DNA of 64,000 nucleotides. Origin: a virus. Lineage: Duplodnaviria > Caudoviricetes. Of the stretch, positions 17,823 through 50,104 are shown piece after piece. Position 1 is the first letter of the stretch; every line of letters begins with the position of its first letter. The stretch covers positions 4,688 through 68,687 of the IMG/VR virus record IMGVR_UViG_3300032227_001145, one strand, 5' to 3'. Below the pieces are notes generated by a model. The model did no database searches, was not told the origin of the DNA, and worked only from the letters and a program-made list of their open reading frames with translations. A program made the position numbers and the translations under genes.

Positions 17823-17932
17823 GATATGGAAAAACCATAAAAACTCAATAAAAAAATAATAGCTTTTTTAAATTATTCTTATATTTTGTAATTAATTCAA
17901 ATTCAGATAAATTAAAGCCAAAATTTATTGTT

Positions 17933-25080: not shown

Positions 25081-26538
25081 TTATTCTGCTCCAATTACAA
25101 TGAGATTGTAAGCCATTTCTCCTCCTCGTTTTCCAGTATTTGGAAAATAATAACCAATATCTATATATCCATCCTCAATACATCTAGCATATCTTATATA
25201 TGGGAAATTGCCAGTTTCTTGATTAATTCCAGATGTTAGAATTCCAGTATTTGAACTTTTCGCTGCTGCTATTGCTATGCAAATATCACCCGATTTAACA
25301 CCTGCAAAATATCTACTTCTAGCCTCTAGATAAGATCCAGTATTTCCTACTTGTGCTACAAGAACATCATTAAATTGCGAATTATGACTAATATTATTAA
25401 TTTTATTTGAATTAGTTCCACTAATTGATGTAATGGTGGTGGTAAAATTATTATTACCAGAATCAAATACAAATTCTGAATTAGATTTCAGATAATCGAA
25501 ATTCATACTATTAAAACCTATTCCAGTTTGTCCAGTAATTATAATATTTTCTATATTTGCTGAAAAAAGTGATGTATCCGCAGTTAAATTATTATTTACT
25601 GTAATGTAATCATAGGAATTATTATTCTCAGATATAAATCCAGAATCTTTAACGCCAGACTCCGTTAAAATATTGCTACCAGTTAAAAAAGCAGATGAAC
25701 TCCCGCTTAAAATAGTTCCAGTTAAAGTATTGCAATCAAAATTACTTCCAGTTAAATAAGTTGAACTAATTAAACCGCTTACATTTCTAAGATTTCCGCT
25801 TATATATGGAGACTTATTAAATTCAATATTTGCATTTACATATAGATTTCCATTTTTAAAATAAGCTCCACTTAAAAACTGGCTTGTTCCTACTGTATTA
25901 AATGAATTTTCAACTTTAATATCATTTTTAATAGAAACTAAGTTATTAAATATTGAAGACCCAGTAATATTGAGGTTTCCACTAAATATTGCCTCTGCTG
26001 AAGATGTTGTTATTACATTTTTATTAAAAACGCAATTATCTCCATCAATAGTTGTTCCGCTCAAAAAGCCAATTAACAAAGAATGATTTGTAGATACTTC
26101 TGAAGAGAACTCTCTGCTTGAGATAATTGATGATCCTGTTATATTTTCTGAAAATATATTATTATAACCAGCAAGAGAAGTATTAAATGTACTTCCAGAT
26201 TCAAATGATAAATTTTCTCCATTAACAATAACATTATTTGAACCAGATGTATCATTAGATGATCCAGCGAAAATTGAATTATTTATTCCATTGGCATTAT
26301 TTTCATAACCTCCAAATACTATATTATTATTATTTGAATCTGAATTATTAGTTGGATTTGATGATAAAAGTAAACCAGAATCTAATGTTAAAGATCCATA
26401 TATATTAAAATTTCCACTTAAAGATCTGTTCAAATTAATATTAAAGCCAGTAGATAAATTTTGAAATACGAAATCTCCAATTTTACTAAAAAAATCTGGC
26501 AATTGAATCTGATCTGGATGTATTTTAATAAAAGACAT
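25081..26538 (-). CDS. Fibre/spike-like virion protein, paralog B
   Basis: S/T/N/G-rich beta-repeat sequence; N-terminal ~110 aa clearly similar to 26541-27875. Confidence 0.6.
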   Translation of the reverse strand: MSFIKIHPDQIQLPDFFSKIGDFVFQNLSTGFNINLNRSLSGNFNIYGSLTLDSGLLLSSNPTNNSDSNNNNIVFGGYENNANGINNSIFAGSSNDTSGSNNVIVNGENLSFESGSTFNTSLAGYNNIFSENITGSSIISSREFSSEVSTNHSLLIGFLSGTTIDGDNCVFNKNVITTSSAEAIFSGNLNITGSSIFNNLVSIKNDIKVENSFNTVGTSQFLSGAYFKNGNLYVNANIEFNKSPYISGNLRNVSGLISSTYLTGSNFDCNTLTGTILSGSSSAFLTGSNILTESGVKDSGFISENNNSYDYITVNNNLTADTSLFSANIENIIITGQTGIGFNSMNFDYLKSNSEFVFDSGNNNFTTTITSISGTNSNKINNISHNSQFNDVLVAQVGNTGSYLEARSRYFAGVKSGDICIAIAAAKSSNTGILTSGINQETGNFPYIRYARCIEDGYIDIGYYFPNTGKRGGEMAYNLIVIGAE

Positions 26539-26540
26539 TT

Positions 26541-27875
26541 TTATAATAAAAGATAATTACCAGTAATTGTAGATGGAAAATTTGATGAAACCATTGAAAC
26601 TGCAATTGAATTAAGAAGAGGTTTTGAAGATAAATATCTTGTGCCAGTTTGGTTTTCTCCACTTAAACAAAAAAACAGTATTTGAGAAGAAAGAGTTCCA
26701 TCAATAAATCCAGTATAAATATTTGAACTGCCAGATCTAGGGCATACAATCTTACCAGCTCTTAAGGAGCTCATGTAACTTCCATTTACTCCAATTTTTA
26801 AAGTATTAGTAAAAACAATATCCTCAGCCGCTATTGTAGTTGTAATAATATTATTAAAATATCCAGTATTTCCAGAAATACTATCAAATTCAATGGAACC
26901 GAAAATTCCAGTTCCATATACATTTAACTGGTCAAGAACAGTCAAGTCCTCAAAGCTTGAATCTATAGATGAAATATAGCCTTGTTGATTAATCCAAGAT
27001 TCTGTTGCTATATTACTTCCAGTTAAAGTTGCTGAATTTGTTATGTTTAAATCAGCAGTATTAATTGTATTTATATTTGCAATTTGTGACTCAAGATTAT
27101 ATCCAGAGATAAGTCCAGTTGCACTTATATTTCCGTTGACTTCTAAACTTCCACTCTGTTTTATATCGGAGTCTATATAAACAGATCCTCCAGTAATGGA
27201 TAGATCTCCAGTCAACCTAAGCTGACCATCTACAATTAAATTTCCAGATAAGTAAATATCATTATTTACTCTTACATTGTTAAAATAAGAAAAGCCATTT
27301 ACAGTCAAGTCAGAATTAAATAATCCAGAATTTGGAGAATTAACAATGAAATTTGTTTCAAACGTAGTTGGTCCTCCATCGAATGTTATTCCGCTTGCAA
27401 AATTAATTATTAAAGAATTGCTTTTATTATTTGTCGTAGCAGATTTTAAATCAGCTAATATTACTGAACCCGTAATATTATTTGCGAAAGAACATCCAGA
27501 TCCCGCTAAAATTGTATTAAATGAAGACGTATTATTAATTCTATTGTTAATTCCATTAACAATAACATTGCTTGTGCCGCTTATATTATTGCCAGATCCA
27601 GCTAATATAGTATTATTTCTGCCAGAAAGCGCAGTATTATTTAATCCACCAAAAATTAAATTTCCGCTATTTTGATTAAAAGTATTGGTTGAGCTTGTTT
27701 TAAACACAGGTCCATTATTTATGGACAATGAACCAGTAATATTGAAATTTCCGCTTAAATTCCTGCTTAGATCAACAACAACTCCTGTTGTCTGATCTGA
27801 AAATATTAAATCGCCGCTTCTACTGTAAAAAGTCGGCAATTGAATTTGTTTTGGTTGAATTTTTTGATAAGCCAT
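26541..27875 (-). CDS. Fibre/spike-like virion protein, paralog A
   Basis: GxLxVxG-type repeats (SGNLIVDGQLRLTGDLSITGG); own GTGTAA element. Confidence 0.6.
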   Translation of the reverse strand: MAYQKIQPKQIQLPTFYSRSGDLIFSDQTTGVVVDLSRNLSGNFNITGSLSINNGPVFKTSSTNTFNQNSGNLIFGGLNNTALSGRNNTILAGSGNNISGTSNVIVNGINNRINNTSSFNTILAGSGCSFANNITGSVILADLKSATTNNKSNSLIINFASGITFDGGPTTFETNFIVNSPNSGLFNSDLTVNGFSYFNNVRVNNDIYLSGNLIVDGQLRLTGDLSITGGSVYIDSDIKQSGSLEVNGNISATGLISGYNLESQIANINTINTADLNITNSATLTGSNIATESWINQQGYISSIDSSFEDLTVLDQLNVYGTGIFGSIEFDSISGNTGYFNNIITTTIAAEDIVFTNTLKIGVNGSYMSSLRAGKIVCPRSGSSNIYTGFIDGTLSSQILFFCLSGENQTGTRYLSSKPLLNSIAVSMVSSNFPSTITGNYLLL

Positions 27876-27900
27876 GCTACAATAAATTATCTTTTAAAGG

Positions 27901-27906
27901 TTACAC
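27901..27906 (-). promoter_or_regulatory. GTGTAA putative late promoter element (fibre pair)
   Basis: 25 nt upstream of the ATG at 27875, in a 38-bp divergent gap. Confidence 0.55.
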
Positions 27907-27913
27907 ATTTTCC

Positions 27914-28519
27914 ATGAAATATACACTCTACAAACCAAATTCAAAAAACACTGGCGCAGCATTTAGTTTCGATTTGGTAAATGATCGCAATAACAAGCCA
28001 GTTCTATTCGTTTCAATGATTCAGCAACATAGTTGGAACGATTCAGCAAAAACAGGATCTTTTAAAGAAAACGCCAAGAACCCAGAAAAGTCAGCTACAA
28101 TTAAGCTAACCGAGAACGAAGCTGGCGAGTTTCTATCATCATTCAAGACTCGCATTCCATATGTGGCTTTCCACAAGAAGGACGATTCAACTACAATTAT
28201 TAAACTCACTCCTTGGGATAAAGCTCGAAAAGTAAAAGAGCAAAATGGAGAACAATCTTTTAATACACCTGCATGGGGATTTAGCGTAAGCAAGAACTCT
28301 TCTCAGTTATTTAAGCTTCCAATCGAAGCAGGAGAAGCAGAGGTTCTTTCTGAATTGTTTAGAGTATATATTACAAAAGTTCTTGAATCTAGCGGCAACG
28401 AATACAAAAAGGAAGATCGCCCCCAACAATATCAAAAAAAGGCTCCTAGAAAAGAATATCAAGAAAAATCAACAGCAGCGGTAGTAGCAGAATCTGAAGA
28501 AGATGATGTCCCATTCTAA
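27914..28519 (+). CDS. Putative non-OB ssDNA-binding protein with SSB-like acidic tail
   Basis: Ends SEEDDVPF (compare bacterial SSB DDDIPF); start set at ATG 27914. Confidence 0.6.
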   Translation: MKYTLYKPNSKNTGAAFSFDLVNDRNNKPVLFVSMIQQHSWNDSAKTGSFKENAKNPEKSATIKLTENEAGEFLSSFKTRIPYVAFHKKDDSTTIIKLTPWDKARKVKEQNGEQSFNTPAWGFSVSKNSSQLFKLPIEAGEAEVLSELFRVYITKVLESSGNEYKKEDRPQQYQKKAPRKEYQEKSTAAVVAESEEDDVPF

Positions 28520-30212
28520 ATTAAAAGTTTTAGTTCATTCCAATTATTCTAGATTGGTTACTGGCTTCGGTAAGAATATGAAAAATATTCTTCTCGCACT
28601 TCATAACGATCCAGATATTGAAGTATTTGAAGCTGCAAATGGAGTTAAATATGGAGTCGATATGATGACTCCTTGGAAGAGCTTTGGAACAATGCCTTCT
28701 GATCATAATTTGCTTCAAATGATCAACAATGATCCAGTCAAGATAAGAGCTGCTCAGTATGGATTTTACACAATAGATAAAATTGTAGAAGAAGTTCAGC
28801 CAGACGTTTATCTAGGCATTGAAGACATCTGGGCATTTTCTGAATTTGATAAAAAGCCTTGGTGGAATAAAACAAAAAAGATTCTTTGGACTACCCTAGA
28901 TAGTTTGCCGATTTTAGATCAGGCTCTTCAAATGGAGCCAAAGTGCGACAAGATGCTGGTTTGGGCAACCTTTGCTGAAAAGGCTATGCACGAACTTGGT
29001 CATACAGAAGTTGAAACTGTTCATGGTGCAGTTGATTATAGTCACTTCAAGCCTCTTTACAATAGAGATGAACTCAGAAGAAAACATAATCTTCAAGACG
29101 ATTACGTTATTGGTTTCGTATTTAAAAATCAATTAAGAAAATCTGTTCCAAATATTTTAGAAGGATTTAAAATATTTAAGTCAGAAAATCCAAACATCAA
29201 GACAAAACTACTACTTCATACAGATTGGGCAGAGAAGGATATGGGTTGGGATATTCCAAGATATATTAAAGAAAAAAATTTAGATCCAAAAGAAATTCTA
29301 GCAACTTACGTTTGTCATAGGTGCGATAATTATTTTCTTAGCGGTTATGATGGTGAAGATAAAAATTGCCCATGCTGCAATTCTGAAAAATCTGTTAAAA
29401 CAAAAAATAGCGCAAGAGGTGTTCGAGAAAAAGAACTTAATGAAATTTATAATATCATGGACGTATATTGCCATCCGTTTACAAGCGGTGGTCAAGAACT
29501 TCCAATTCAAGAAGCGAAAGCAGCGGGTCTTATTACCCTTGTGACTGATTATTCCTGCGGCACCGATTCTGCTTATCCACATCAAGGCGGTCTTCCACTT
29601 AAATGGAACGAATACAGAGAACCAAGCACTCAGTTTATTAAGGCAACAACTTGTCCAAATAGCATTGCCGAAATGCTAAAACAAGTTTACGAAATGCCGT
29701 TAATACAAAAGCAAGTATTGATAGAAAATGCAAAAAGACATGTCGAAGAGAGATTCTCTGTGCAAACCACAGTCAAAAAGCTTAAAGAAATAATTTCTAA
29801 TGTAAAATTAAAAACAAAAGCGGATGAAATTTTTAATAATCAACAACCAACACAATCTCTAGAAGATATTTTAAGTGATGTTGAGTTAGAAAATAGAATA
29901 GCAGTTGTAATGGGGGAATCTGGTGGAGATGTTTTGATGATAAATTCTATGATAGAGAATCTAAATTCTCTCTATCCAGAAAAGAAAATTTTTGTTTTCA
30001 CAAGACATGATTTTTTTGACTTTATAAACGACAATCCATTTGTATACAAATTGCTTCCATATACTAATCAAATAGATAATCTCTTAGCGCTAGAAGGACA
30101 AGGAGCGCACAAGGGTCTTTTTAATATTGCATTTTTGCCTTATATTGGAACTCAAAGAATATTAAATTATATGCATAATGGTCAAGATAAAACACAATTT
30201 GAATTAAGATGA
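28503..30212 (+). CDS. GT4 glycosyltransferase fused to a GT9-like N-terminal half
   Basis: FKNQLRKSVP, PFTSGGQELPIQEAKAAG; C-terminal ESGGDVLMINSMIENLNSLYPEKKIFVFT. Confidence 0.8.
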   Translation: MMSHSKLKVLVHSNYSRLVTGFGKNMKNILLALHNDPDIEVFEAANGVKYGVDMMTPWKSFGTMPSDHNLLQMINNDPVKIRAAQYGFYTIDKIVEEVQPDVYLGIEDIWAFSEFDKKPWWNKTKKILWTTLDSLPILDQALQMEPKCDKMLVWATFAEKAMHELGHTEVETVHGAVDYSHFKPLYNRDELRRKHNLQDDYVIGFVFKNQLRKSVPNILEGFKIFKSENPNIKTKLLLHTDWAEKDMGWDIPRYIKEKNLDPKEILATYVCHRCDNYFLSGYDGEDKNCPCCNSEKSVKTKNSARGVREKELNEIYNIMDVYCHPFTSGGQELPIQEAKAAGLITLVTDYSCGTDSAYPHQGGLPLKWNEYREPSTQFIKATTCPNSIAEMLKQVYEMPLIQKQVLIENAKRHVEERFSVQTTVKKLKEIISNVKLKTKADEIFNNQQPTQSLEDILSDVELENRIAVVMGESGGDVLMINSMIENLNSLYPEKKIFVFTRHDFFDFINDNPFVYKLLPYTNQIDNLLALEGQGAHKGLFNIAFLPYIGTQRILNYMHNGQDKTQFELR

Positions 30213-31324
30213 GCCACCTAGCAGAAGTATATGCAAAAGACCTTGGAGTAAAAATTGGTAATCCAATTTTTAAGCCTCATTTCTTTCCTATCGTTGATGA
30301 TAACTATATCACGATTCACACAGATAATAATGTTCAATCAAAGCATTATGACTACTGGGATGAAGTTATAACAATTGTCAAAAAAAATACTGAAAATATA
30401 AAATTTATCCAAATTGGCTCTGGAAGAGAACCAATTATACAAAATGCGGATAAATTTATTCAAACAAATTCTATAAAACAATCCTCATACATTATCGAAC
30501 GCGGATTAATGCACGTTGGTATTGATAGCGCACCAGTTCATATTGCTTCTGTATTAAACAAGCCAATAGTAGCAATTTACGCTCATACATACGCAGCTAC
30601 TTGCTGTCCTCTTTGGGGCGACAAAAGCAAGCAGATAATTATAGAATCTCACAGGGATGGAGAAAAGCCTTCTTTTTCTAATCAAGAGGCTGACAAAAAA
30701 ATAAATAAAATTCACCCAGAAGAAATAGCCAATGCAATTCTTAAACTGCTTAATCGCGGCAAAGCAAACTTTAAAACTCTTTTTATTGGAAAAAAATATA
30801 AAGAACAATTGTTTGAAGTTATTCCTGACCATTCATACGATATTCAATCAAATAATATGGTCATCAGAATGGATCATTGTCATAATGAGAATAATATAAT
30901 TCAATTACTAGGTAAAAACGAATGCTTAATTGTTACTAAAAAACCAATATCAAAGTCGCTTTTATCACACCAAAACATCAAGAGAGTAAATTATGTTTCA
31001 GACTGTTTTGACAGGGGATTTATAGAAGATTTAAAATCATTAGGTAAAGATTTTGCATTATTGTGTTCGTCTGAAGAAAATTTAAATTCAGAACGAGCCA
31101 AGTTTTTTGACGATCACATTCTTCTTTATGATGAATCTAAGAAAATTTGCGAAAATAAAGAAAAAATAAAATTAGACAAATTTAATTTTTCTAGTTTTAA
31201 AAAGGTGTTAAAAAACAAAAAGATTCATAATAGCCACTACGAAGCTAATGATTCAAAAAATCTAGATGATTTTTATCTTGACCTAGAGAATATGTTTTTA
31301 TATACTCTTGATCATGAACAATAA
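30209..31324 (+). CDS. GT9-like C-terminal-half glycosyltransferase domain plus unknown domain
   Basis: YITIH..SKHYDYW, IQIG, HVGIDSAPVHIASVLNKPIVAIY. Confidence 0.75.
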   Translation: MSHLAEVYAKDLGVKIGNPIFKPHFFPIVDDNYITIHTDNNVQSKHYDYWDEVITIVKKNTENIKFIQIGSGREPIIQNADKFIQTNSIKQSSYIIERGLMHVGIDSAPVHIASVLNKPIVAIYAHTYAATCCPLWGDKSKQIIIESHRDGEKPSFSNQEADKKINKIHPEEIANAILKLLNRGKANFKTLFIGKKYKEQLFEVIPDHSYDIQSNNMVIRMDHCHNENNIIQLLGKNECLIVTKKPISKSLLSHQNIKRVNYVSDCFDRGFIEDLKSLGKDFALLCSSEENLNSERAKFFDDHILLYDESKKICENKEKIKLDKFNFSSFKKVLKNKKIHNSHYEANDSKNLDDFYLDLENMFLYTLDHEQ

Positions 31325-32084
31325 AAAAGTCTACGGTCCAGATCTCTATAAGCGCAACGAACACGGTCTTCTTGAAAATGTTGATTACATCTTTAATCAA
31401 GATGGTTCTGTTGATTGGCGAGCAATGATCAGACCAGAATTTCTTTATCCAAATAAAGATTGGTTCTCAGCTAGAGGCAAAGAGCTTCCTTCCTCGCCAG
31501 AAGGCTTAGATGACAAGCAACTATTGATCATGCTTGGAGGCATCAAAGAGCTTGCTCGACTTCGTGGATTTCGTTCTGTCTCATTTGAAACTAAAAATGA
31601 AGACAATGGCTATGTTACTGCAAAATGTAAAATTGAATGGATTGAAAATTACGAAACAGGCGGAATTGGTGTTTTGTATGAAGATGTGGCTAATGCTACC
31701 TTAGCTAATACAGATTCTTTCTGCGCAAAGTTTTTGGAAACGATTGCTTGCAATCGAGCATTTGTTCGTTGCGTTCGCAACTACCTTAATGTTCATATTG
31801 TTGGCGCTGATGAAATTGACAAATCCAAGGGTGCAAACAATTCAAGTTCTGTCGAATATGATTCAGCAGAATCTTCAAACATTAACCTAACTCCTTCTGC
31901 AATGCTTGAGAAGGCTGTAAAAGAGAAGACTGGATCGGATTCTTTCGATCAGTTTAAGAATGTTCTTCGAGAATTTTGGAAACAAGAAAAGTATCGAAAT
32001 GAAGCTGCAAAAGAGTGGACTTCGTTTAATGATATTCCAGCAAAAGAATCTCGCAAGCTTCTTTCGTTAATTAAAACATTATAA
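31308..32084 (+). CDS. Possible Rad52/Sak-like single-strand annealing protein
   Basis: LGGIKELARLRG..beta strands..ETIACNRAFVRCVRNYL resembles the AETRA..RA helix of annealing proteins; recalled, not searched. Confidence 0.4.
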   Translation: MIMNNKKVYGPDLYKRNEHGLLENVDYIFNQDGSVDWRAMIRPEFLYPNKDWFSARGKELPSSPEGLDDKQLLIMLGGIKELARLRGFRSVSFETKNEDNGYVTAKCKIEWIENYETGGIGVLYEDVANATLANTDSFCAKFLETIACNRAFVRCVRNYLNVHIVGADEIDKSKGANNSSSVEYDSAESSNINLTPSAMLEKAVKEKTGSDSFDQFKNVLREFWKQEKYRNEAAKEWTSFNDIPAKESRKLLSLIKTL

Positions 32085-34379
32085 ACCCATAGTATTTCTC
32101 TGACGCGCAGAGAACTTTAATGATTTCTCTTTTATCAAGTTTGCCACTCCATCAGATATAATGAGATTTTCGTCTATCTGAAGAATAGGTACCGTAGATC
32201 TTGACTCCGTTGTTGTGGCTCCTTGTCCACCAAGCCTAATTTGTAGGCCAGAAAGAGTAATATCAAATTTAGGTATATTTATGCCAGCCATCGTCTTAGA
32301 GGATGATTTTAAACCTTTTGTTGAAGCTGCGCTAGAATTTGATTTTTCCAAAATATTCATTTCTGATAATGTTCCGTTTTTAACATTAAATTGAACTGGA
32401 TTAAGAGGATCTCCACTAGCGCCACCTAAAATTGTTTTTGTTATCACAAGTTCGATTTTATCTAGAAGTTCTGTTGATTTTTCTCCCCAAGAATCAAGAT
32501 TTGCTTTTCTATCATCTTCTTTTTTCTGCTCTTCAGCGTCTCTTGGGTCTGTAGTTGGCCTTCTTGTTCTTGTATAATTTACTTTTATAGTTGAAGATTT
32601 TTTTGAATCTTTAATTCTTTTGGTAAATAAATTCTTTGAAGTGGTAGTCAATCTTCCAATTGATTCTTTTAATTTTGGAGAAAAGCCTGCATATCTTTTT
32701 TTCTGTGGAGTTTCATATATAATAAAATTCTCCTCATTAAATAAATCATATAGCTTCATTTCTTCTGAAGTCATTTCTTTACTTTCAGAGTTTCCGTAAG
32801 GCTTTAATGCAATGAAATGATGGTCCCCAGATCCAGTAGCTTTTGTAGTTTTAGCTAGATCTTCTAAAGAAATCTCTTCTTTGCCAAGAGCTTTCAATAA
32901 TGAAGCTATTGACTGTAATCCTTCAACATTTTCAAGCAGCTCCTTTTCAAAAAAAGGTCCACTAACATTACCATCGCTTGAGCTGCAACTCATTCTAACA
33001 GCCTTCCATTCGGAATAAGCGTTAGATATATAAATAGTATTATTTAATATATCAAATGCATTTTGTACCAATTCAAATACTGTAGATTCGCTTGGAAGTT
33101 GATTTTCGCCAATTGGTAAAAACTGACCCTTTTTTAAATCAAACTTTCCTTTAAAAGCTTCCTCGGCTCTTTTTGCTGCTGCTGACCATTTATATACTTC
33201 ACTCCAAGTTTTAAAAGAAGTATCAGAATCAAACTTTGCTGTATAATATTCTCCAAATAATTCTTCAGCTTTTATTTTTTTATAACCCAATGCATAAATA
33301 GAGATTGCATCAAATGCAATTGAAGAGAATTTAGAAGCAGCATAAGATCCGTAAAAGAATTCAAATCCTTTTGATGGAATGCCTAGTTCAACTTTTCCAA
33401 GAATATCTACCAACTTAAATCTAGCAATTCTTTGCTTATCTGGATATTCATATTCAAATTTCTTTGGAGAAATTTTTGACATATACGAATTTGCAATTAC
33501 TGGCTTAAGAGCATTTATCGTATAAGATGAGCTTAGAATATCTGGCGAGTTACTTTGTGTAGGATCTGGAATATTTAAATTAACTGCTGATTGAGAAGAT
33601 ATTAAATTTACTGTCCCAGCAAATGGATCAATGTACCAATATAATCCAAATGTTGAAGCTACAGAGGATATAACAGAATCTAAACTTCCCGACGTATCAA
33701 ATAAAAGATCTGATCTATTAGGGAGTCCTTTAACATTAATGCCAGCCAAAGCAAATGCTGCATTTAGTTCTGACAATGTATACCCATATTTTAAAACAGA
33801 AGAATTTAAATCTGGGTTATTTTTATACCAAGAGCTAACTAAACTTGAATTATAGGATAATTCTTCTTTTAAATTTCCATCTTGATAAATTAAAGATACT
33901 CTATAATTTTCTTCTCCCTCAATCGTTTCAGAAATTTCATTATAAATTTGTCCTATGATAAGTGCTCCACCCTGTCTTTGAGGAGGTTTTTCTGGAAATT
34001 TTTTAGTAGAATTTGAATTTTTACATTCTCCAAAAAATGGAACCAGTCCCTTATAAGATAAGTTTCCATCTGGAGAAATATCTTTCCCCCGAACAGCAAT
34101 AAAATATGATTTTAATAATAAAGAAATTCTGTCTTGATATTGCCTTGTAACAGTTGTTTTAATTGGATCTCTCGAATAAGTTTCTTCAGTCATTATAAAA
34201 TTTTTAAATGCTGAATTAATTGAGCTATTAGAAAATGTAACTCTTGAACCAGCGGAGCCAATTAAAGAGCCAAGAGAACCTCCTAACCCTATAGCACCAA
34301 TTACGCTACTTGTAGATGCTGAATGACCACCACCTCCATTAGTGAAATTCATATCTAAAGCAACCAAAGTTTCACTCAT
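32079..34379 (-). CDS. Tail-tip/hub-type virion protein
   Basis: Last gene of the operon after the tape measure; TFGLYWYIDP segment resembles tail hub proteins. Confidence 0.5.
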   Translation of the reverse strand: MSETLVALDMNFTNGGGGHSASTSSVIGAIGLGGSLGSLIGSAGSRVTFSNSSINSAFKNFIMTEETYSRDPIKTTVTRQYQDRISLLLKSYFIAVRGKDISPDGNLSYKGLVPFFGECKNSNSTKKFPEKPPQRQGGALIIGQIYNEISETIEGEENYRVSLIYQDGNLKEELSYNSSLVSSWYKNNPDLNSSVLKYGYTLSELNAAFALAGINVKGLPNRSDLLFDTSGSLDSVISSVASTFGLYWYIDPFAGTVNLISSQSAVNLNIPDPTQSNSPDILSSSYTINALKPVIANSYMSKISPKKFEYEYPDKQRIARFKLVDILGKVELGIPSKGFEFFYGSYAASKFSSIAFDAISIYALGYKKIKAEELFGEYYTAKFDSDTSFKTWSEVYKWSAAAKRAEEAFKGKFDLKKGQFLPIGENQLPSESTVFELVQNAFDILNNTIYISNAYSEWKAVRMSCSSSDGNVSGPFFEKELLENVEGLQSIASLLKALGKEEISLEDLAKTTKATGSGDHHFIALKPYGNSESKEMTSEEMKLYDLFNEENFIIYETPQKKRYAGFSPKLKESIGRLTTTSKNLFTKRIKDSKKSSTIKVNYTRTRRPTTDPRDAEEQKKEDDRKANLDSWGEKSTELLDKIELVITKTILGGASGDPLNPVQFNVKNGTLSEMNILEKSNSSAASTKGLKSSSKTMAGINIPKFDITLSGLQIRLGGQGATTTESRSTVPILQIDENLIISDGVANLIKEKSLKFSARQRNTMGL

Positions 34380-35137
34380 AAATTATAGTTATTTTCTTCG
34401 TAAGAAATAAATTCTATACGACAATTTACACCAGTTTTAACAAATGTAACTCCAGTATAAAGCTGAAGAAAATCAGATTCAAGCTGCTCCATGCCATTAA
34501 TGTAATAATCTACTTGGTCCTCTATAAATAAAACAGATCCATATAAATCTGGATAATCTGATTCTGCGTCTAAAGTTTTTTGTCTTTTCTTTATTGCAAA
34601 TAACTTGCCAGTAGTTGAATTTGATGGATACTCATTAAGAATTATTTTTTGTCCATTTAAAAAAACATAATAATTATTAAACATCAATGATACAGATGTT
34701 ATGGTTGGATCACTTGCTGCTACTTTAAGTCTTAATCCCGTAATTGAAGAGTCTACGCTCGAAATTCCTTGTTTTAAAACAGCAACTCCAGTGGAAAACT
34801 CTCTTCTATCATAAATTAACGAATCGCTATTTGATAGAGAAATTTCATCAGCCATTCTAAACGAGCTAAAATAGCTTGCTTCATCTGGAGTTAAAAAATA
34901 ATCTCCAGTAAAAATATAATCATAATTTATGTTTTTTCCGCTTACACGAACAGAAGTTTCTTCTAATAATATTTGAGAATTTAGTGAAACAAATGAAGCA
35001 TGTTTTCCTGTAATAACACTATTGTCATAAAACATTTCTGATAGACCATACGAGGCAGGAGTATTTCTATAAATAGTGTCATTTAAACTACCAGAAATTG
35101 ACCGATCTCCAGTTGATATAACAAAAGAATAATTCAT
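34376..35137 (-). CDS. Virion (tail-tip) protein
   Basis: Position in the tail operon; VFLNGQ and YYINGMEQ repeats. Confidence 0.5.
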   Translation of the reverse strand: MNYSFVISTGDRSISGSLNDTIYRNTPASYGLSEMFYDNSVITGKHASFVSLNSQILLEETSVRVSGKNINYDYIFTGDYFLTPDEASYFSSFRMADEISLSNSDSLIYDRREFSTGVAVLKQGISSVDSSITGLRLKVAASDPTITSVSLMFNNYYVFLNGQKIILNEYPSNSTTGKLFAIKKRQKTLDAESDYPDLYGSVLFIEDQVDYYINGMEQLESDFLQLYTGVTFVKTGVNCRIEFISYEENNYNL

Positions 35138-36513
35138 GAATCTCTACCTCCTAAATAATAAATATAATTTTTCTTCAAGTTTTGCGAATTGCCGCTAAAT
35201 AATATTCCAGAAGCGGGATCTGTGAATTCGGAATAACTTTCTGTTAGAGGCGTTTGAACGACTCCACTAATTTCATTTAATAATCCCGTTTTCGCAATCT
35301 TGCCATATAAATTAATAGTTGTAGATTCTTGTCCAGTAACTTCTGTTATAATATAATTAGTAATAGACTGTGAAACATTTTGTAGACCAAGTGTAGCAAA
35401 AGCTCCATCGCCAGTTGGATAGTATATATATCCAGAGTTTGGATGAAGGAATCCTAATTCTTCTTTATATGAAATATTTTGCCCACCAGCATAGAGGTTA
35501 TAATATTTAAAATATCTTTCTCCTTCTTTTACTGATTGAGAGCTTCCTGCTTGATAACTACCAGTTATATACTCTCGCCCTGTATGAAGAGTTAGCGTGC
35601 CAGTAACTTGGTATTCATATCCAGTAATTCCAGTTTTATAAATTACAGAATCAGAATATCCAGTAATTCTTGTTTTAATTGTTTCTACAGGAGCAGAATA
35701 AAAATAATCTCCAATTATTCCAGATCCAATATATTTTAAATAATAATCTGAAACAACACCACTAAAAATAGCTAATTGATTAATTGATCCAGAAAATGTT
35801 AAATTGGCAGGACTTGTTGATCTATAATATTGGTTAGATCCACCAAAATATAAATAGTCAGAATTTGCAATATAGTTGCTTGTTGTTTGTATTTCTTCTT
35901 GCTCGATGCTATTATTAAGATAATCTAACCTACTAACTGAAATAGAATCTCCGTAAGAGCTTATTCCAATAATATTTCTTTTCGATAGCTCTATATTTAA
36001 TAAGCTAGAAATTTGATCTCCATCAGAACCATAAGCTTGTAAAAATAAATGCCCTCTACAATCAACGCCAACATTAAAGCCCTTTGATCCTGTATAATTA
36101 ATACCATTAACTGTTTCTGTGAATTTTTCAAATGTTCCAAAAAGAATTCCATCTGTAATTGGTCCACTAAATTCAAAATCAATTATCATTCCAAAATCAT
36201 CAAGATTTAAATCGTGTATTGGTATTCTTAAATTTGTTCTGCTTAAATTTAAACCAGATCGAATTCCAGAAAAAGAAAGTCCAGTAGCTATAGCTAGCGT
36301 GCTTCCTGTTGCACTAAGCATATGTGCTTGGTATTTTCCAGTATTATATGCTGGATAAAAATTTTTCAATATGCCAGTATATGGAGAAGAGCCTGAGATA
36401 TAAAAACTGTTATTTACAGAAGATCCAGTTATTGTAAAATCATAATAAGCGGCCAGTCTTTCATTAGATGAAAAAGATTCTGTCAGTAAGTAGTTTATTG
36501 CATCAGCACTCAT
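35134..36513 (-). CDS. Virion protein with a LamG/concanavalin-like region
   Basis: LAAYYDF..LYFGG..FSGSINQLAIFSG resembles LamG-like tail domains. Confidence 0.55.
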   Translation of the reverse strand: MSADAINYLLTESFSSNERLAAYYDFTITGSSVNNSFYISGSSPYTGILKNFYPAYNTGKYQAHMLSATGSTLAIATGLSFSGIRSGLNLSRTNLRIPIHDLNLDDFGMIIDFEFSGPITDGILFGTFEKFTETVNGINYTGSKGFNVGVDCRGHLFLQAYGSDGDQISSLLNIELSKRNIIGISSYGDSISVSRLDYLNNSIEQEEIQTTSNYIANSDYLYFGGSNQYYRSTSPANLTFSGSINQLAIFSGVVSDYYLKYIGSGIIGDYFYSAPVETIKTRITGYSDSVIYKTGITGYEYQVTGTLTLHTGREYITGSYQAGSSQSVKEGERYFKYYNLYAGGQNISYKEELGFLHPNSGYIYYPTGDGAFATLGLQNVSQSITNYIITEVTGQESTTINLYGKIAKTGLLNEISGVVQTPLTESYSEFTDPASGILFSGNSQNLKKNYIYYLGGRDS

Positions 36514-38111: not shown

Positions 38112-38115
38112 TAAA

Positions 38116-39660: not shown

Positions 39661-39670
39661 GTTTTATAAT

Positions 39671-44197: not shown

Positions 44198-44206
44198 TTC
44201 AACTAA

Positions 44207-44212
44207 TTACAC
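44207..44212 (-). promoter_or_regulatory. GTGTAA putative late promoter element (tape measure)
   Basis: 9 nt upstream of the ATG. Confidence 0.65.
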
Positions 44213-44216
44213 AAAA

Positions 44217-45086: not shown

Positions 45087-45868
45087 TCATCAGGAAAAAG
45101 TTCTTTTATCTTTTTGTCAATTTCTTCTTGGTCTTTGCCGACTTTGTTATACCAAATATTAACAACCTTAACCAAGTGCATAAAAGATTTGTCAAAAATG
45201 GCCTTATTTTTAAGAAGAGCTTTGTCTGAAATATCTTCAGCATCTTCGCATAGTCTCAAATAATGCTCTCTTTTTTCTTCGTAATCATCGCCAAGAAATA
45301 ATGGGAAAATTTCTTTAGAACCATTACTTAATTCTTCTTCGTAATAAGAAAAGTTAAAAAGAAACCATTCAATAATCTTTTGCTCCGCCTTGGTTTCCGC
45401 CGTTTGTTGGTATTGCGTCCTGAAAGAATTTTCAAAATTTTCAATATTTTTTAAGCTTGATACGAAAAGCTCCCTAGCTTCTTTAAGTTTGATTGTTTGC
45501 TCTTCGTCAAGATCATCTCTTCCTTCATAAAATTGAATAATTTTTGCAGATTCTAAATTATCAACAAAAGCCTTATTAACACTTTCTTCCATTAGCTTAG
45601 ATGAAGTGCCACCAATATCTCCAAGCTTCTTATTAAGCATGGCTTTAGTTAAAAAGCCAGCATTGATAAGTTCATTGTATTTTTGACCATAAAAGAATTC
45701 TGCATTCTCGATATCTGAGAAATTAGGCTTTTGAAAAACAACTCTATTGGTGATCTGTGATTTTACAACCTTTGTAGACTCTACCATTTCTCCCTTTTTA
45801 TTTTTACTAACGTATGGGATTGTTTTTTCTATTTCTCTGGTTATTGGAAACGAATATAATTCTTTCAT
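45083..45868 (-). CDS. Probable tail assembly chaperone (upstream)
   Basis: Helical, acidic; syntenic position. Confidence 0.5.
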   Translation of the reverse strand: MKELYSFPITREIEKTIPYVSKNKKGEMVESTKVVKSQITNRVVFQKPNFSDIENAEFFYGQKYNELINAGFLTKAMLNKKLGDIGGTSSKLMEESVNKAFVDNLESAKIIQFYEGRDDLDEEQTIKLKEARELFVSSLKNIENFENSFRTQYQQTAETKAEQKIIEWFLFNFSYYEEELSNGSKEIFPLFLGDDYEEKREHYLRLCEDAEDISDKALLKNKAIFDKSFMHLVKVVNIWYNKVGKDQEEIDKKIKELFPDE

Positions 45869-45869
45869 G

Positions 45870-46319
45870 TTAATGCGTCAATACAATATTATCAGAAGAA
45901 ATTAAAATAATTCCAGCAGAATCCGCCAATATATTCAAATAATCTTGACTTATTCCTTTGTGAGTAATTGCTATTGAAGAATTACCATGTTTATCGAATT
46001 CAATTCTATTTGGTTGATTTAATACATTGATGTTGTTTTTAATTAAAACCCCATCTATATAATAAGAAGCATAATTGCTATCATGAAAGTGAGTTGTTAT
46101 TTTAAAAGTCTTATTTGACCTATAGCCACCAATAAAATCTCCAGATCTGTCAAAAATATAACCATTATATCCTGAAAACATTACGCCAGAATTAATTAAA
46201 CCAGACTCTTCAGTTCCGTAATCAGCAACGATTTTAAATCCAGATTGAGCTGAATCAATTAATATGTCAAAATCGATTATTGATTTATTATAGCCAGTAA
46301 TGTCTTGATAAACGAGCAT
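45870..46319 (-). CDS. Small virion-associated protein
   Basis: Own GTGTAA element; beta-rich; 6 S/T-G dipeptides. Confidence 0.5.
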   Translation of the reverse strand: MLVYQDITGYNKSIIDFDILIDSAQSGFKIVADYGTEESGLINSGVMFSGYNGYIFDRSGDFIGGYRSNKTFKITTHFHDSNYASYYIDGVLIKNNINVLNQPNRIEFDKHGNSSIAITHKGISQDYLNILADSAGIILISSDNIVLTH

Positions 46320-46328
46320 TTTATTATA

Positions 46329-46334
46329 TTACAC
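46329..46334 (-). promoter_or_regulatory. GTGTAA putative late promoter element
   Basis: GTGTAATATAAT, 9 nt before the ATG, abutting the terminator U-tract. Confidence 0.65.
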
Positions 46335-46369
46335 AAAAAATAAGCCTCATCTTTCGATGAGGCTTATTT
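46335..46369 (-). terminator. Intrinsic terminator after the tail tube gene
   Basis: AAATAAGCCTCATC-GAAA-GATGAGGCTTATTT then a T run. Confidence 0.88.
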
Positions 46370-46392
46370 AAGTTTAATTCAAAGAAACATTA

Positions 46393-47598
46393 TTAGATAG
46401 GTTGAGCTGCTGCTGCAACTCCGCTATATAAACCAGTATTTCTACTTGTTCCAGCAAGCCAATTTGTATTTGCGGCACCTGTCCAGAATAAACCATCAGT
46501 TGTTGTTGAGACTCCACCTATTTGTGCAGAGAATGTTAAATCAACAGTTTCGTTATCGTCAAGACCAATAGAGAAATTTTGAGAATCGAGAACGGCATTT
46601 TTAAGCTCGAAGTAATGCTGAGTAGTTCCTGCATCATTTTTTACTTCAACTTTAATATTTGTTTTGTTATCTCCAGCAGTTCCAGTAAGAACATGTTCAA
46701 GAGCGCCTGCTGCGAAGTTTCTAACAAGCGTATTCATAGTCATTGTAACATTGATTGGGAATTCAAGCAGCTTTGCATAAGCTCTTTCTTGTCCTAAGCA
46801 TTCAATATTTTGACGGGAAAGTGGAACTTCAATAGAGCAGCTTTGTAAGCAAACAGCATTTAAATCACATCCTCCAACTTTGCCAACTCCATTTGCAGTT
46901 GTAGTTGAAATGTTATTGGTGTTAAAAGTTACGATAACGTCATCTGGTCTAAGAACAAGCATACTCATAGTACCAGTGCTTGGAACGCCAAGAGAAAATA
47001 ATCCAGCGTCTGCTCTGCCGCCATCTGAATTTAGAGCTGGGTTCTTAAAACCAGAGTGTCCACCAGTATAGAATACAATATTTGATGCTTCGAATTCAAC
47101 ATCTGCTCTTGGAATTTCTCCAACGGAGAAATTAGCAGTATAAGAGGTCATGGTGCAATTACCAAAGCCAATCACATCATGATCCGCTCTTTGACTTTCA
47201 TAAACACTTGTATTAAAAGCATCTTCACCTTCCTTAGAAGTTAGAACATAAATATTTCTTTCTTTAACAAGAGCATCATTTGTTAAGAATCCAGAGATCA
47301 TTTGCGCACCAGTATCATTTGTAAAACCAAGCGCAAGCTCGTTTTCGCCATCTCCTAGATAATAACCAAGAGAAATGGAAGGATTAATTTCGGACATTGT
47401 TAATGTGCCGATACGAGCTAATTGACCGAATTCTCTAATGTCTTGTCTAGAACCCGCTAAATCAATATCAAATGATAATGTGTCAACGCGATGTAACTGA
47501 TGACCAGAAATCGCATTTTTAGATGCGCTTTCATACCACCCAGTATTAGTTACATAAACAGCCTTATTTTGTGAAATTACTCTTGTTCTTGTTGCCAT
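46393..47598 (-). CDS. Major tail (tube) protein
   Basis: Own promoter and terminator; RQDIREFGQL and RQNIECLGQ internal duplication typical of tube proteins; upstream of chaperones and tape measure. Confidence 0.7.
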   Translation of the reverse strand: MATRTRVISQNKAVYVTNTGWYESASKNAISGHQLHRVDTLSFDIDLAGSRQDIREFGQLARIGTLTMSEINPSISLGYYLGDGENELALGFTNDTGAQMISGFLTNDALVKERNIYVLTSKEGEDAFNTSVYESQRADHDVIGFGNCTMTSYTANFSVGEIPRADVEFEASNIVFYTGGHSGFKNPALNSDGGRADAGLFSLGVPSTGTMSMLVLRPDDVIVTFNTNNISTTTANGVGKVGGCDLNAVCLQSCSIEVPLSRQNIECLGQERAYAKLLEFPINVTMTMNTLVRNFAAGALEHVLTGTAGDNKTNIKVEVKNDAGTTQHYFELKNAVLDSQNFSIGLDDNETVDLTFSAQIGGVSTTTDGLFWTGAANTNWLAGTSRNTGLYSGVAAAAQPI

Positions 47599-47622
47599 AT
47601 TCTATAGAAATGTTTATTTTTA

Positions 47623-47628
47623 TTACAC
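47623..47628 (-). promoter_or_regulatory. GTGTAA putative late promoter element (tail tube)
   Basis: 24 nt upstream of the ATG. Confidence 0.6.
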
Positions 47629-47632
47629 TTGT

Positions 47633-48511
47633 TTATAATCTAGGGAATCTGTAAGTGGACAAATCAAAATCAACAAGAGCAATAGAGAAGTTTTTGTTTA
47701 AATTTTCCCTAAGTTCTTCTGATATAACTTTTGAAACAGATACCTTTTCTATGTGCGATATTGCAGCACTAGCACCTTGGGATATTTTTAATGATGAGTA
47801 AAAATAGGGAAAATTTTTAATCGAATAAGAATAACCGTATGGAAAATCCTCATAAGGAATATGAGTTATTCTTTCTCTCGCGGTATCTCTTAGCCTAGAT
47901 ATAACACTATCCATTATATAAGAATCTTTAGTTAAAACCATTACTCTGATTCTTGTCTTTGTATCTTCTTCTCCACCAAAGCAAAACTCCTCGTTTTCAG
48001 AAGAAGCAATAGAAACAAAGCAGGCTGGCAAAAAGTAAGATCCTTCGTCTAATTTATTTCCCTTGCCGTATAAATAAGGAGAATCTTGGCCGTTTTCTAT
48101 GAAATCAGAATGTAAGATAAAATCTAAATCATTATCATGAGAAATATAAGTATTAACTTCTTTGACAGAAAAGTTTCCACTAATTTGTAAAGAAGTTCCA
48201 GATCCAGAGGGAAGTAGTATTCTGCCATTTTGATAATCAAGAAGAATCCCACCGTTTTGTTGGGGATTTCCAGTAATGAAATTTCCATTAATAAAAAACC
48301 CAGAATTAGAAACGTCTATATTGCTTTCAGCTACAAGCTGCCTATACTCTCCCTGATATCCAACCATGTCTTGCGGAATATCATTAAAATCAATATATTT
48401 AAATGAATTTTGCACATTTGTTAAATACGCTTTTGTATCATCTTTTAAAAGACGATTTTCCAGCCAGAGATAAAAACTGGATAAAAGGTTCTGATCAAAT
48501 TGCGCTTTCAT
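47633..48511 (-). CDS. Tail terminator/completion-like protein
   Basis: Last neck gene before the tail tube; LPACFVS..RIRVMVL pattern. Confidence 0.5.
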   Translation of the reverse strand: MKAQFDQNLLSSFYLWLENRLLKDDTKAYLTNVQNSFKYIDFNDIPQDMVGYQGEYRQLVAESNIDVSNSGFFINGNFITGNPQQNGGILLDYQNGRILLPSGSGTSLQISGNFSVKEVNTYISHDNDLDFILHSDFIENGQDSPYLYGKGNKLDEGSYFLPACFVSIASSENEEFCFGGEEDTKTRIRVMVLTKDSYIMDSVISRLRDTARERITHIPYEDFPYGYSYSIKNFPYFYSSLKISQGASAAISHIEKVSVSKVISEELRENLNKNFSIALVDFDLSTYRFPRL

Positions 48512-49134
48512 TTATCTAAGTTTTGCAAATTATTTCTAAATTTATTGAATATTTTAGAAATATATGGAGTTCCTTTAAAGGTTACACTCCTTTTGCCATT
48601 TTTAGTTTGAATACCAGTTCCAGATGAAGAATTCTTAAAGCCAGTCTTGCTGTATAAGTAACTGCCTAAATTACTAATACCCTTTTCTACTCCTTCTGCC
48701 CAGCTAGATCCAGAAGCCCAAGGAATAGGCGTGGCAGAAGATATTTCTTCTTGAGATGGAGCATAAACTGTAATTGCAAATCTTCCAGAAGCAACAGTTC
48801 GAACCTTAAATGTCATTTTTCTAGACAGAATTTCATGTATAACTGAAGTTGGATCGTCGCCAGAACTAAAGCCAATAAAAGAAAACAAGTTGCCATATCC
48901 CCCCAAAGTATTACTAACATTTCCAGCATTCGGACCACCTTTGATTTCTCTCGTCACAGCATGAGAATTGAAATCTTTGATTAATTCTCTTTGAGCTTCT
49001 TCTATTTTTGGAGCAATAAATTTTCTTATTTCTAAGGCAGTTGCGGCTTGATTTTTAAACGAAATATCCTTTAAAAGTTGAGCTTGATTTATCTCAACTT
49101 TAAACTGTGTCGCAGATAAGAAAGCTCTTGCCAT
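48508..49134 (-). CDS. Neck/tail-completion protein
   Basis: Synteny; W..GVE.G and KGTPYISKI resemble neck proteins. Confidence 0.45.
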   Translation of the reverse strand: MARAFLSATQFKVEINQAQLLKDISFKNQAATALEIRKFIAPKIEEAQRELIKDFNSHAVTREIKGGPNAGNVSNTLGGYGNLFSFIGFSSGDDPTSVIHEILSRKMTFKVRTVASGRFAITVYAPSQEEISSATPIPWASGSSWAEGVEKGISNLGSYLYSKTGFKNSSSGTGIQTKNGKRSVTFKGTPYISKIFNKFRNNLQNLDK

Positions 49135-49583
49135 TAGTTTTCACGTTTTAAATAGATCATGTAATATTGTGTAGAAAATGGCCCAATATTCTTAGCATCT
49201 GAATCAACAATATATAAGACATCATCTATTTCGATTCTTGAGCAAATCTTAATTTTCTCATAAGCATCTTGCGCAACTTTAATTCGAGCCTTGCCTTCAG
49301 AAGATTTTAAATTTAATTGAGCATCGCCATCAACAACATTTTCTTCTTGATTATTTTCAAAATAAACTCTGGCCTTAAATGTGTGCTTTGTAAGAACTGT
49401 CTGAGCAGCAACTCTTTGAACATCCTTTGTTTTTCCATATAAAGGATTGTAGTTGGAGTTAGATGGCTTGCTGGCAATCTTCGTTTCAACATAAACATAA
49501 ATATCTCTAGAAAACGTGTCATGCACGTCTGCAAGGGCTGCTTGAATTGAAGCCTTTTGAGCTGATGTAAGTAGCGATGCCAT
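49134..49583 (-). CDS. Head-closure (stopper)-like protein
   Basis: 149 aa, C-terminal beta-barrel pattern (RIEIDDVLYIV..YYMIYLKR). Confidence 0.5.
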   Translation of the reverse strand: MASLLTSAQKASIQAALADVHDTFSRDIYVYVETKIASKPSNSNYNPLYGKTKDVQRVAAQTVLTKHTFKARVYFENNQEENVVDGDAQLNLKSSEGKARIKVAQDAYEKIKICSRIEIDDVLYIVDSDAKNIGPFSTQYYMIYLKREN

Positions 49584-50104
49584 TAGAATCCTCTGTAGTA
49601 ACTTCTTGAGCCGTAATTATCAAGTGCGTCAATTGGTTCGATGCCATCCTCTCCAGCAACTTGCAGCGGAGTTGATTTATACGCATTGTATTTACCAACT
49701 AAATCATTTAGTCTTTGTGTCGCGCCATTTCTTAATTCAATGAACGTTTTGGAAACAGAGTTTTTGTTTTGTCTTTGAATTGTTGTATCGCCCTCTTTAA
49801 GAGTTATCCAATCAGCATCATTACCATAAATAAAGCCACGCAGAGAATCTCTGGAGGCTTTTTCATAATAGTGAATTTCATACAAGGTAGAGTAAATATT
49901 TTCTTCTACTGGCAACAAACCAGAGCCTGTTGTAATCTCAATTGCACCAGTAGAATTAATATAAAACTCCTCGTTTAAAAGACCATTCAATTCTCCAATA
50001 TTAGCATCAAGCCAACCAGAAACATAAGAAACTGGAAATCTTTGCCTATCTTCAGAGAATTCGTAATTTACAATTTTTGTAGCTAGTCTTCCAAGATCAT
50101 TCAT
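49583..50104 (-). CDS. Head-tail adaptor-like protein
   Basis: Synteny after the capsid gene; WITLKEGDTTI. Confidence 0.45.
   Translation of the reverse strand: MNDLGRLATKIVNYEFSEDRQRFPVSYVSGWLDANIGELNGLLNEEFYINSTGAIEITTGSGLLPVEENIYSTLYEIHYYEKASRDSLRGFIYGNDADWITLKEGDTTIQRQNKNSVSKTFIELRNGATQRLNDLVGKYNAYKSTPLQVAGEDGIEPIDALDNYGSRSYYRGF

Follow-up and report, generated by a model that had tools for sequence, protein, structure and literature searches.

Analysis of a 64-kb stretch of DNA from an uncultured marine phage (hereafter the window; 64 kb of the 68.7-kb single-contig virus record G000) revealed a marked excess of Ser-Gly and Thr-Gly pairs, written here as [S/T]-G, in the fibre and tail-tip proteins. 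The excess is real, goes beyond amino-acid composition and acts at the protein level. It is a clade-specific, clade-wide and unusual habit of distal tail proteins. A sequence-only reading of the window had proposed that the pair is an O-glycosylation sequon for the phage's own glycosyltransferases (GTs). The step from enrichment to sequon was not supported, as each discriminating test leaned towards structure. We therefore think that [S/T]-G is probably, and chiefly, a structural corner motif of beta-solenoid and beta-ribbon tail proteins, and that this is the main cause of the excess. Genes are named below by their first coordinate in the window.

The excess and its spread among relatives

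Each protein was compared with 2000 composition-preserving shuffles of its own residues, and for pooled groups the shuffles were also confined to windows of 15 or 30 residues. The strongest excess was found in the fibre paralogues 25081 (28 sites where 10.7 are expected, z 6.2) and 26541 (27 against 11.0, z 5.8), followed by the tail protein 35134 (26 against 10.6, z 5.65) and the tail-tip protein 34376 (10 against 3.0, z 4.5). Pooled, these four core proteins hold 91 sites where 35 would be expected (z about 11), and this value did not change when residues were shuffled only inside 15- or 30-residue windows. No other dipeptide of the 400 is as enriched in the core proteins as TG (z 10.3) and SG (z 5.6), whereas the reverse pair, G-[S/T], occurs just 42 times against the 91 of [S/T]-G (binomial p 2.6e-5). 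Ser or Thr precedes 57% of the Gly residues in these four proteins, compared with 13% in the rest of the window.

Two further proteins showed a moderate excess, 45870 (z 2.9) and 36513 (z 2.4), and together they contain 19 sites against 9.7 expected (z 3.4). Neither the putative tube protein 46393 (z 1.7) nor any of the neck proteins (z 1.3-1.7) was significant singly; pooled, tube and neck hold 26 sites against about 17 (about 1.5-fold, z 2.6-2.8). Head, replication and GT genes were at expectation in pooled shuffles. The tape measure had no excess, and neither did the capsid protein (2 sites, z -0.9).

These results reproduce the hand counts of SG plus TG from which the sequon idea arose, namely 28/485 residues in 25081, 27/444 in 26541, 26/459 in 35134, 10/253 in 34376 (where Ser or Thr stands before 10 of the 15 Gly), 13/532 in 36513, 6/149 in 45870 and 11/401 in the tube. 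The control counts also held (DnaE 4, NrdA 3, portal 3, TerL 1 and the capsid protein 2), except that the tape measure has 22 sites on recount and not 19. A comparison of observed with shuffled counts had been suggested as a check, and the excess survived this correction for composition. Its claimed reach across fibre, tail and neck proteins was too wide in one respect, since it is strong in the fibres and tail-tip proteins and only modest, and visible only at the pooled level, in the tube and neck. In addition, two tail-tip proteins that had been described as weakly enriched turned out not to be enriched (32079, 6 sites against 10.8 expected, z -1.7; 38116, z -0.2).

The same distribution was observed among relatives. 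Across 35 related viral contigs, the ratio of observed to expected [S/T]-G was 2.1 for the orthologues of the fibres 25081/26541, 2.33 for 34376, 2.22 for 35134, 2.16 for 36513 (median z 4.55) and 2.65 for 45870 (9 orthologues). The corresponding ratios were 0.91 for 32079, 0.95 for the tape measure, about 1.0 for the GTs, 0.49 for 38116 (29 orthologues) and 0.43 for 45083 (22 relatives). The level of the excess is stable within orthologue groups, at 2.1-2.65-fold in six and about 1 or below in the others. Within the fibre family, with 26541 as the reference, 111 representative homologues had a median z of 4.4 and 84% of them exceeded z 2, while the 120 homologues of 35134, which are 37-66% identical, had a median z of 4.6. 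In 24 more distant contigs, TG and SG were the top dipeptides of giant tail proteins in about 14 loci, and these giant proteins have no BLAST similarity to the proteins of this phage. The giant tail protein was not enriched in 9 of the 24 distant loci that carry the GT cassette described below. Homologues of the neck-region protein 48508 recur in distant relatives at z 1.2-3.3.

A probable corner motif of solenoid and ribbon proteins

In the enriched proteins the pair sits in the context hydrophobic-[S/T]-G-x-hydrophobic. The triplet hydrophobic-[S/T]-G was found 57 times against 15 expected (z 11.8), with Ile enriched at position -1 (p 3e-4) and Leu enriched two residues past the Gly (p 4e-4), and Gly is avoided directly after the motif Gly. 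The I/V-[S/T]-G grammar, without the +2 Leu signal, also holds for 22 enriched proteins from distant relatives (807 sites), which lack BLAST similarity to the proteins of this phage. Among longer or alternative motifs, the Bacteroidota sequon D-[S/T]-[AILVMT] was not enriched (0.85-fold) and GA[S/T]G did not occur at all, while [S/T]GS (3.7-fold) and [S/T]G.T (2.3-fold) added little beyond [S/T]-G.

An AlphaFold2 (AF2) model of the fibre 26541 places the motif at corners. The model consists of a YadA-head-like beta-roll (about residues 58-165) and then a beta-solenoid (about 162-295), with a predicted local distance difference test (pLDDT) score of about 87-98 over residues 60-300. VIA-align related it to the UspA1 head (Z 13.7 and 11.2), tapirin (Z 14.0, root-mean-square deviation 2.6) and bactofilin (Z 11.4 and 10.8); Foldseek returned no significant match for this model. 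YadA-like heads (UspA1, EibD), tapirin and bactofilin resemble it in their short strands, Gly-containing corners and inward hydrophobic register, and these folds have no sequence relationship to the fibre. Over residues 200-250 (pLDDT about 87-92), strands were seen at 207-209, 213-215, 218-221, 225-227, 232-234, 237-240 and 244-246, and the turns joining them within residues 207-249 read SGN, DG, TGD, TGGS, DS, SGS and NG. This series of turns indicates that [S/T]-G and [N/D]-G fill equivalent corners of one solenoid. Sites 84, 99, 210, 222, 228, 241 and 285 all lie directly after strand ends in the fibre model.

A second AF2 model, of 35134 (pLDDT 75), shows a ConA/LamG-like jelly roll (about 95-255) and long beta ribbons (277-430) in which TG pairs recur every 6-7 residues. 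Lectin-like jelly-roll domains were its sole fold matches in Foldseek. As modelled, the jelly roll is plausibly a carbohydrate- or receptor-binding module.

Conservation of the sites was informative as well. In the 35134 family the sites at 241-435 are near-invariant, and each is fixed either as Thr (for example 114 T, 0 S) or as Ser (113 S, 0 T), counted across sequences that are 37-66% identical. Mixing of Ser and Thr in this family was 0.037 at conserved [S/T]-G columns versus 0.17 at other S/T-majority columns. The same comparison gave 0.09 versus 0.19 in the 36513 family, 0.13 versus 0.17 in the 34376 family and 0.16 versus 0.21 in the fibre family. Where the Ser or Thr of a fibre-family column is replaced, Asn is the top single replacement (26%), followed by Gly (21%) and Asp (9%). 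Asn, with some Asp, also leads the replacements at several sites in the families of 34376 and 36513, and in the 35134 family the commonest replacement is Glu (31%) and then Asn (13%). A glycan acceptor would be expected to show interchange of Ser with Thr and exclusion of residues that lack a hydroxyl; instead, mixing was low and Asn, Asp and Gly were frequent. Interchangeability is an expectation and not a strict criterion, as some transferases accept one residue only. Nevertheless, the pattern of replacement and fixation fits a turn-capping residue followed by Gly and is not expected of a generic hydroxyl acceptor.

Based on these observations, we propose that the distal tail proteins would be built of short beta strands linked by tight corners of two or three residues, for which hydrophobic-[S/T]-G-x-hydrophobic would be the preferred sequence. 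From general knowledge of ST- and Asx-turns, the first hydrophobic residue would close a strand and face the core, the Ser/Thr hydroxyl would cap the turn by hydrogen bonding, the Gly would adopt the backbone angles that the corner demands and the following hydrophobic residue would open the next strand. By strand alternation, the Ser/Thr side chains should point outward. The size of the excess would reflect the number of corners in these proteins together with a habit of the clade to use Ser or Thr over Asn, Asp or Gly. We favour this structural explanation because of the register of the motif, its position at solenoid corners, the equivalence of Asn and Asp, the residue-specific conservation and the inheritance of the excess with orthologue groups.

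Several observations weigh against it. In the monomer model of 35134, many TG pairs lie inside long strands and not at turns, and each of the two AF2 models shows a single chain, although the proteins are probably oligomers. No mutual similarity is detectable among the enriched proteins, the fibre paralogues excepted, and five of seven unrelated fibre C-terminal domain clusters are enriched. There is also a fourfold gap between 36513 (2.16-fold) and its possible paralogue 38116 (0.49-fold). Furthermore, classical fibres and beta-helices do not share the habit. T4 gp34 (z 0.1), gp37 (0.7) and gp12 (-1.7), lambda J (-0.4), P2 gpH (-0.6), the P22 tailspike (0.3) and the Ag43 beta-helix (-0.5) had no excess, and neither did lambda Stf; all of these classical controls were within z -1.7 to +1.5, and the P22 ejection protein gp20 was the only classical protein to reach z 3.5. 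A generic property of phage fibres or beta-helices was thus ruled out by the T4, lambda, P2 and P22 fibres and Ag43, and because these proteins lack the excess, 'beta turns in fibres' is insufficient as a general explanation. In Ag43, the one solenoid tested, Gly is preceded by G, N and A, so the strong choice of Ser or Thr at corners is particular to this phage clade. That choice over Asn, Asp and Gly still needs its own explanation. Finally, the clade keeps three GT-B genes beside these tail proteins.

As for the pair with opposite ratios, 38116 may be a distant paralogue of 36513 judging by sequence comparison (BLAST E 1.3e-4; hhalign probability 46%, E 2e-4). At these values the homology is suggestive, and the idea that the two are same-fold paralogues with opposite motif content was dropped.

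Glycosylation genes and competing explanations

The sequon proposal drew on the glycan genes of the window, which were counted as seven GT-like open reading frames (ORFs), Gmd and three methyltransferases. Hidden Markov model (HMM) searches supported four GT-like ORFs (23557, 28503, 30209 and, weakly, 16186) and confirmed Gmd (PF16363, E 3.5e-105). For the methyltransferases, they recovered a CmcI/rhamnosyl-O-methyltransferase-like gene plus one or two S-adenosylmethionine (SAM) methyltransferases. Within the glycan cluster there is a PF04989 match of 26.2 bits (cut-off 23.2), 16186 has a weak GT2/phrog_13126 match (GT-A-like), and 14402 is a SAM methyltransferase (phrog_5399).

A four-gene plus-strand cassette (27788-32084) adjoins the solenoid fibres 25081 and 26541. 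Its second gene, 28503, has a four-Cys finger (C271, C274, C289, C292; CxxC…CxxC) inserted in the GT4-like domain, and this finger is invariant in 16 sequences. The C-terminal piece of 28503 weakly resembles the start of a GT9 N-lobe (3TOV residues 9-67, E 0.077), and the next gene, 30209, gave a weak profile match to WaaF (1PSW residues 245-298, E 0.014). From these matches, a GT9-like transferase appears to be split over the two ATGA-coupled genes 28503 and 30209. The two-gene GT4/GT9 layout is kept wherever the gene is visible (33 of 35 relatives), and a 28503 homologue was found in 31 of 35 loci (the other 4 are truncated) and in all 24 distant loci. In distant relatives (e.g. loci L099, L102 and L108), the cassette shares its orientation with DnaE, ClpC-like, helicase, primase and RecA-like genes. 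Because of this arrangement and of the acidic tip of the first cassette gene, which resembles that of single-stranded DNA-binding protein (SSB), the GT genes may not be part of the tail module but of a transcription unit that is expressed early or during replication.

The sugar pathway is more variable. Gmd was present in 6 of the 9 records searched; the three records without it, each estimated to be 35-52% complete, carry another glycan cluster with a GT2, a HAD-phosphatase/nucleotidyltransferase fusion and a WavE-like gene. In the sister lineage G004/G005 (loci L122-L123, about 15.8-23.6 kb in G004), the alternative cluster lies directly upstream of the GT4/GT9 cassette, and on this basis the sugar pathway seems exchangeable and the GT-B cassette fixed. 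The excess appeared at first to track Gmd, which was found in 0/3 records with an unenriched giant protein versus 6/6 records with enriched tail proteins. This relationship failed, as G005 lacks Gmd and has four enriched ORFs. No relative without GTs was found: three scans of viral contigs returned members of this clade alone, and each of them had the cassette. A thymidylate-synthase-like hydroxymethylase, which would have suggested a role in DNA glycosylation, was not found in four records, each about 50% complete.

The best-surviving alternative to a structural motif is that [S/T]-G, or its solenoid corner, is the acceptor of the phage's GTs, and that fibre and tail-tip proteins are hyperglycosylated in the cytoplasm before assembly. 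The sugar would possibly be a methylated 6-deoxyhexose made via Gmd and the methyltransferases. We regard this as unlikely, although it is compatible with a structural role, since an enzyme could recognise the corner itself as bacterial autotransporter heptosyltransferase (BAHT) enzymes do on autotransporter beta-helices. In its favour, the excess is strong and has a direction, classical unglycosylated fibres lack it, and it is confined to particular tail proteins while others, such as 38116 and 45083, fall at or below expectation. An outward orientation of the Ser/Thr side chains, expected from strand alternation, would also fit. The phage also encodes both GTs and a sugar-nucleotide pathway (PF00534, PF01075, phrog_2170 twice, PF16363 for Gmd, and PF04989), and records without Gmd have a different glycan cluster. 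Moreover, 23557, 28503, 30209 and 31308 occur in nearly all relatives, and the four-gene cassette with 23557 is more conserved across relatives (48-68% identity) than the fibres (30-45%). On the other hand, Ser and Thr are not interchangeable at conserved sites, and Asn and Asp, which cannot be O-glycosylated, are frequent replacements at equivalent corners. The enrichment does not follow Gmd cleanly, and 9 of 24 distant cassette loci have an unenriched giant tail protein as neighbour. The SSB-like opening gene of the cassette and its co-direction with DnaE, helicase and primase in distant relatives suggest early or middle expression, which also speaks against a role in tail modification.

The closest precedent is that of the BAHT enzymes. 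TibC is a cytoplasmic GT9-related GT-B enzyme with a four-Cys metal finger that hyperglycosylates Ser in beta-helix loops; it heptosylates TibA Ser-313 in NSGG of the beta-helix and leaves Thr unmodified (PMC4358343). As in the BAHT systems (TibC/AAH on TibA and AIDA-I), the phage encodes a GT9-like enzyme and solenoid fibres whose corners carry S/T-G; one of its GT-B enzymes has a candidate finger of four Cys, and the gene for a beta-helical candidate substrate adjoins the enzyme genes; in distant relatives, the cassette sits in a block of replication genes. In contrast to TibC, the phage has its finger in the GT4-like part instead of the GT9 part, two genes encode the GT9 between them, and no heptose pathway was seen. 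Thr-Gly is the stronger signal in the phage, whereas TibC modifies Ser only, which counts against the sequon explanation. TibC was not among the PDB entries recovered in profile searches with the GT4 and GT9 families, which returned only the weak GT9 matches to 3TOV and 1PSW given above.

A second comparison is with mycobacteriophages, in which glycans are reported at the C-termini of capsid and tail-tube subunits, with phage-encoded GTs modifying the phage's own virion proteins (PMC12619734, citing Freeman et al. 2023). In the present phage, by contrast, the capsid protein is not enriched and the tube is not significant singly, and the signal lies in the fibres and tail tip.

In its broadest form, the glycosylation hypothesis holds that a very abundant marine siphophage clade hyperglycosylates I/V/L-[S/T]-G solenoid corners of its fibre and tail-tip proteins in the cytoplasm with its own GT-B set (a four-Cys GT4, a two-chain GT9 and a second GT4), the sugars being supplied by lineage-variable clusters. 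Such a system would be the phage equivalent of BAHT-type glycosylation of autotransporters. This too seems doubtful to us. The sequon stays under consideration because every relative found carries these GT-B genes and a glycan cluster of one kind or another, which leaves no contrast. The glycosylation idea is attractive and testable, it was not demonstrated in this analysis, and we would give it the smaller share of belief.

A refinement of the structural explanation addresses the preference for Ser and Thr. Corners would need a side-chain oxygen and a Gly, and Ser or Thr would replace Asn or Asp because Asn-Gly and Asp-Gly are labile in seawater virions. The lability of Asn-Gly, through deamidation and isoaspartate formation, is established chemistry. 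In line with the refinement, [N/D]-G does not exceed expectation in the enriched proteins (0.85-fold), and N before G is at 0.62-fold in the four core proteins. However, Asn and Asp do occupy equivalent corners in the fibre model, the same pressure should also act on the fibres of T4, lambda, P2 and P22, which have no S/T-G preference, and the depletion of 38116 is left unexplained. We consider the refinement improbable.

An artefact, whether of amino-acid composition, local low complexity, codon usage or a DNA motif, has next to no chance of accounting for the excess: the pattern looks at first like a DNA word, with 85% of Ser/Thr codons before Gly ending in T and ACTGGA at 25 of the 91 sites, but T-ending before GGN is genome-wide (73% at [S/T]-G in other genes, 67% for other four-fold codons), CTGGA is found solely in the sense reading frame, the excess is retained in homologues that differ at the DNA level, and window-restricted shuffles keep z at about 11 while G-[S/T] is not enriched. 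The genome-wide codon habit and the sense-frame restriction of CTGGA ruled out a DNA word or codon artefact and indicate that selection acts on the protein; composition and local low complexity were ruled out by the windowed shuffles and the G-[S/T] control. As a separate observation, there is a genome-wide codon-pair habit: when a Gly codon follows, about 70% of four-fold-degenerate codons end in T (about 42% elsewhere) and those ending in A are avoided, which may serve to keep Shine-Dalgarno-like AGG(A) words out of genes.

If the structural corner motif is correct, hydrophobic-[S/T]-G with 45-60% of Gly after Ser or Thr would be a signature by which fibre and tail-tip proteins could be recognised. 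This would be useful in a large and abundant marine clade where neither Pfam nor PHROG has a family for the structural genes. If the corner is a glycosylation site as well, it would represent the first fibre or tail-tip hyperglycosylation by a phage's own enzymes, with a bearing on host recognition, the stability of virions in seawater and the interaction of phage particles with marine polysaccharides.

The phage and other features of the window

The genome is low in GC (about 34%) and of the siphophage type. Genes identified in the window with Pfam include DnaE, DnaB, primase, a RecA-like protein, ribonucleotide reductase and PhoH, and a T4-type large terminase and a 1508-aa tape measure were also identified, whereas most of the structural proteins of the window matched no Pfam or PHROG family. 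DNA and protein searches of 50,697 phage records found no cultured relative. In metagenomes there are thousands of relatives, and one GT alone has over 3,000 homologues, to which Tara Oceans samples contributed many.

Record G000 is about 47% complete according to CheckV. The 68.7-kb record and its 53-92-kb relatives have CheckV completeness values of 35-67%, and homologues lie on contigs of up to 184 kb; the true genome size may be well above 100 kb. Because of the low completeness and these longer contigs, statements here on the absence of genes are provisional.

The coordinates of the features are collected in Table 1. For the N-terminus of 36513, the Dit/DNA_circ_N assignment (Atlas) serves as a lead only. 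The sequence pattern of 45870 looks LamG-like by eye.

Table 1. Tail, glycan and other features of the window, with gene product lengths and [S/T]-G content
Feature	Position	Strand	Remarks
LAGLIDADG homing-endonuclease gene (second)	5517-6431	-	between the PHP and polymerase-core genes of the split DnaE
Glycan cluster	13018..19313	-	Gmd, methyltransferases, GT-A-like gene
GT-B (GT4-like) glycosyltransferase	23557..24648	+	phrog_2170 E 1.3e-17; ~65% identical in 23 relatives
Fibre paralogue 1	25081..26538	-	485 aa, 28 sites, z 6.2; 39% identical to 26541 over 340 aa
Fibre paralogue 2	26541..27875	-	444 aa, 27 sites, z 5.8
First cassette gene, SSB-like acidic tip (EEDDVPF)	27788..28519	+	57-79% identical in 31 relatives; no HMM match
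GT4-like transferase	28503..30212	+	PF00534, phrog_2170
GT9 C-lobe, then ~200-aa unexplained domain	30209..31324	+	ATGA-coupled to 28503; PF01075 positions 103-245, E 1.4e-7
Last cassette gene, conserved 258-aa protein	31308..32084	+	58-81% identical in 33 relatives; no HMM match
S/T- and G-rich tail protein	32079..34379	-	766 aa; not enriched
Tail-tip protein	34376..35137	-	253 aa; S/T precedes 10/15 Gly; sites 9, 43, 77, 228, 235 conserved
Tail protein	35134..36513	-	459 aa, 26 sites
Protein with Dit-like N-terminus	36513..38111	-	532 aa, 13 sites
Tail-tip protein	38116..39660	-	514 aa; orthologue group depleted
Depleted orthologue group	45083-45868	-	0.43-fold
Protein directly downstream of the tube gene	45870..46319	-	149 aa, 6 sites
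Putative tube (401 aa) and four neck-region proteins	46393..50104	-	mild excess, pooled level only
LAGLIDADG homing-endonuclease gene	57944-58585	-	adjoins the large terminase gene

Inserted sequences may occur in a relative as well. In G008 (locus L136, about 25136-27220 in record coordinates), Gmd lies inside one 694-aa open frame. The Pfam match to it comes in two pieces, positions 1-185 and 184-332, with about 1 kb between them, a pattern that resembles an intein or an inserted domain. The large terminase of G008 is 1046 aa long, compared with 630 aa in the phage described here.

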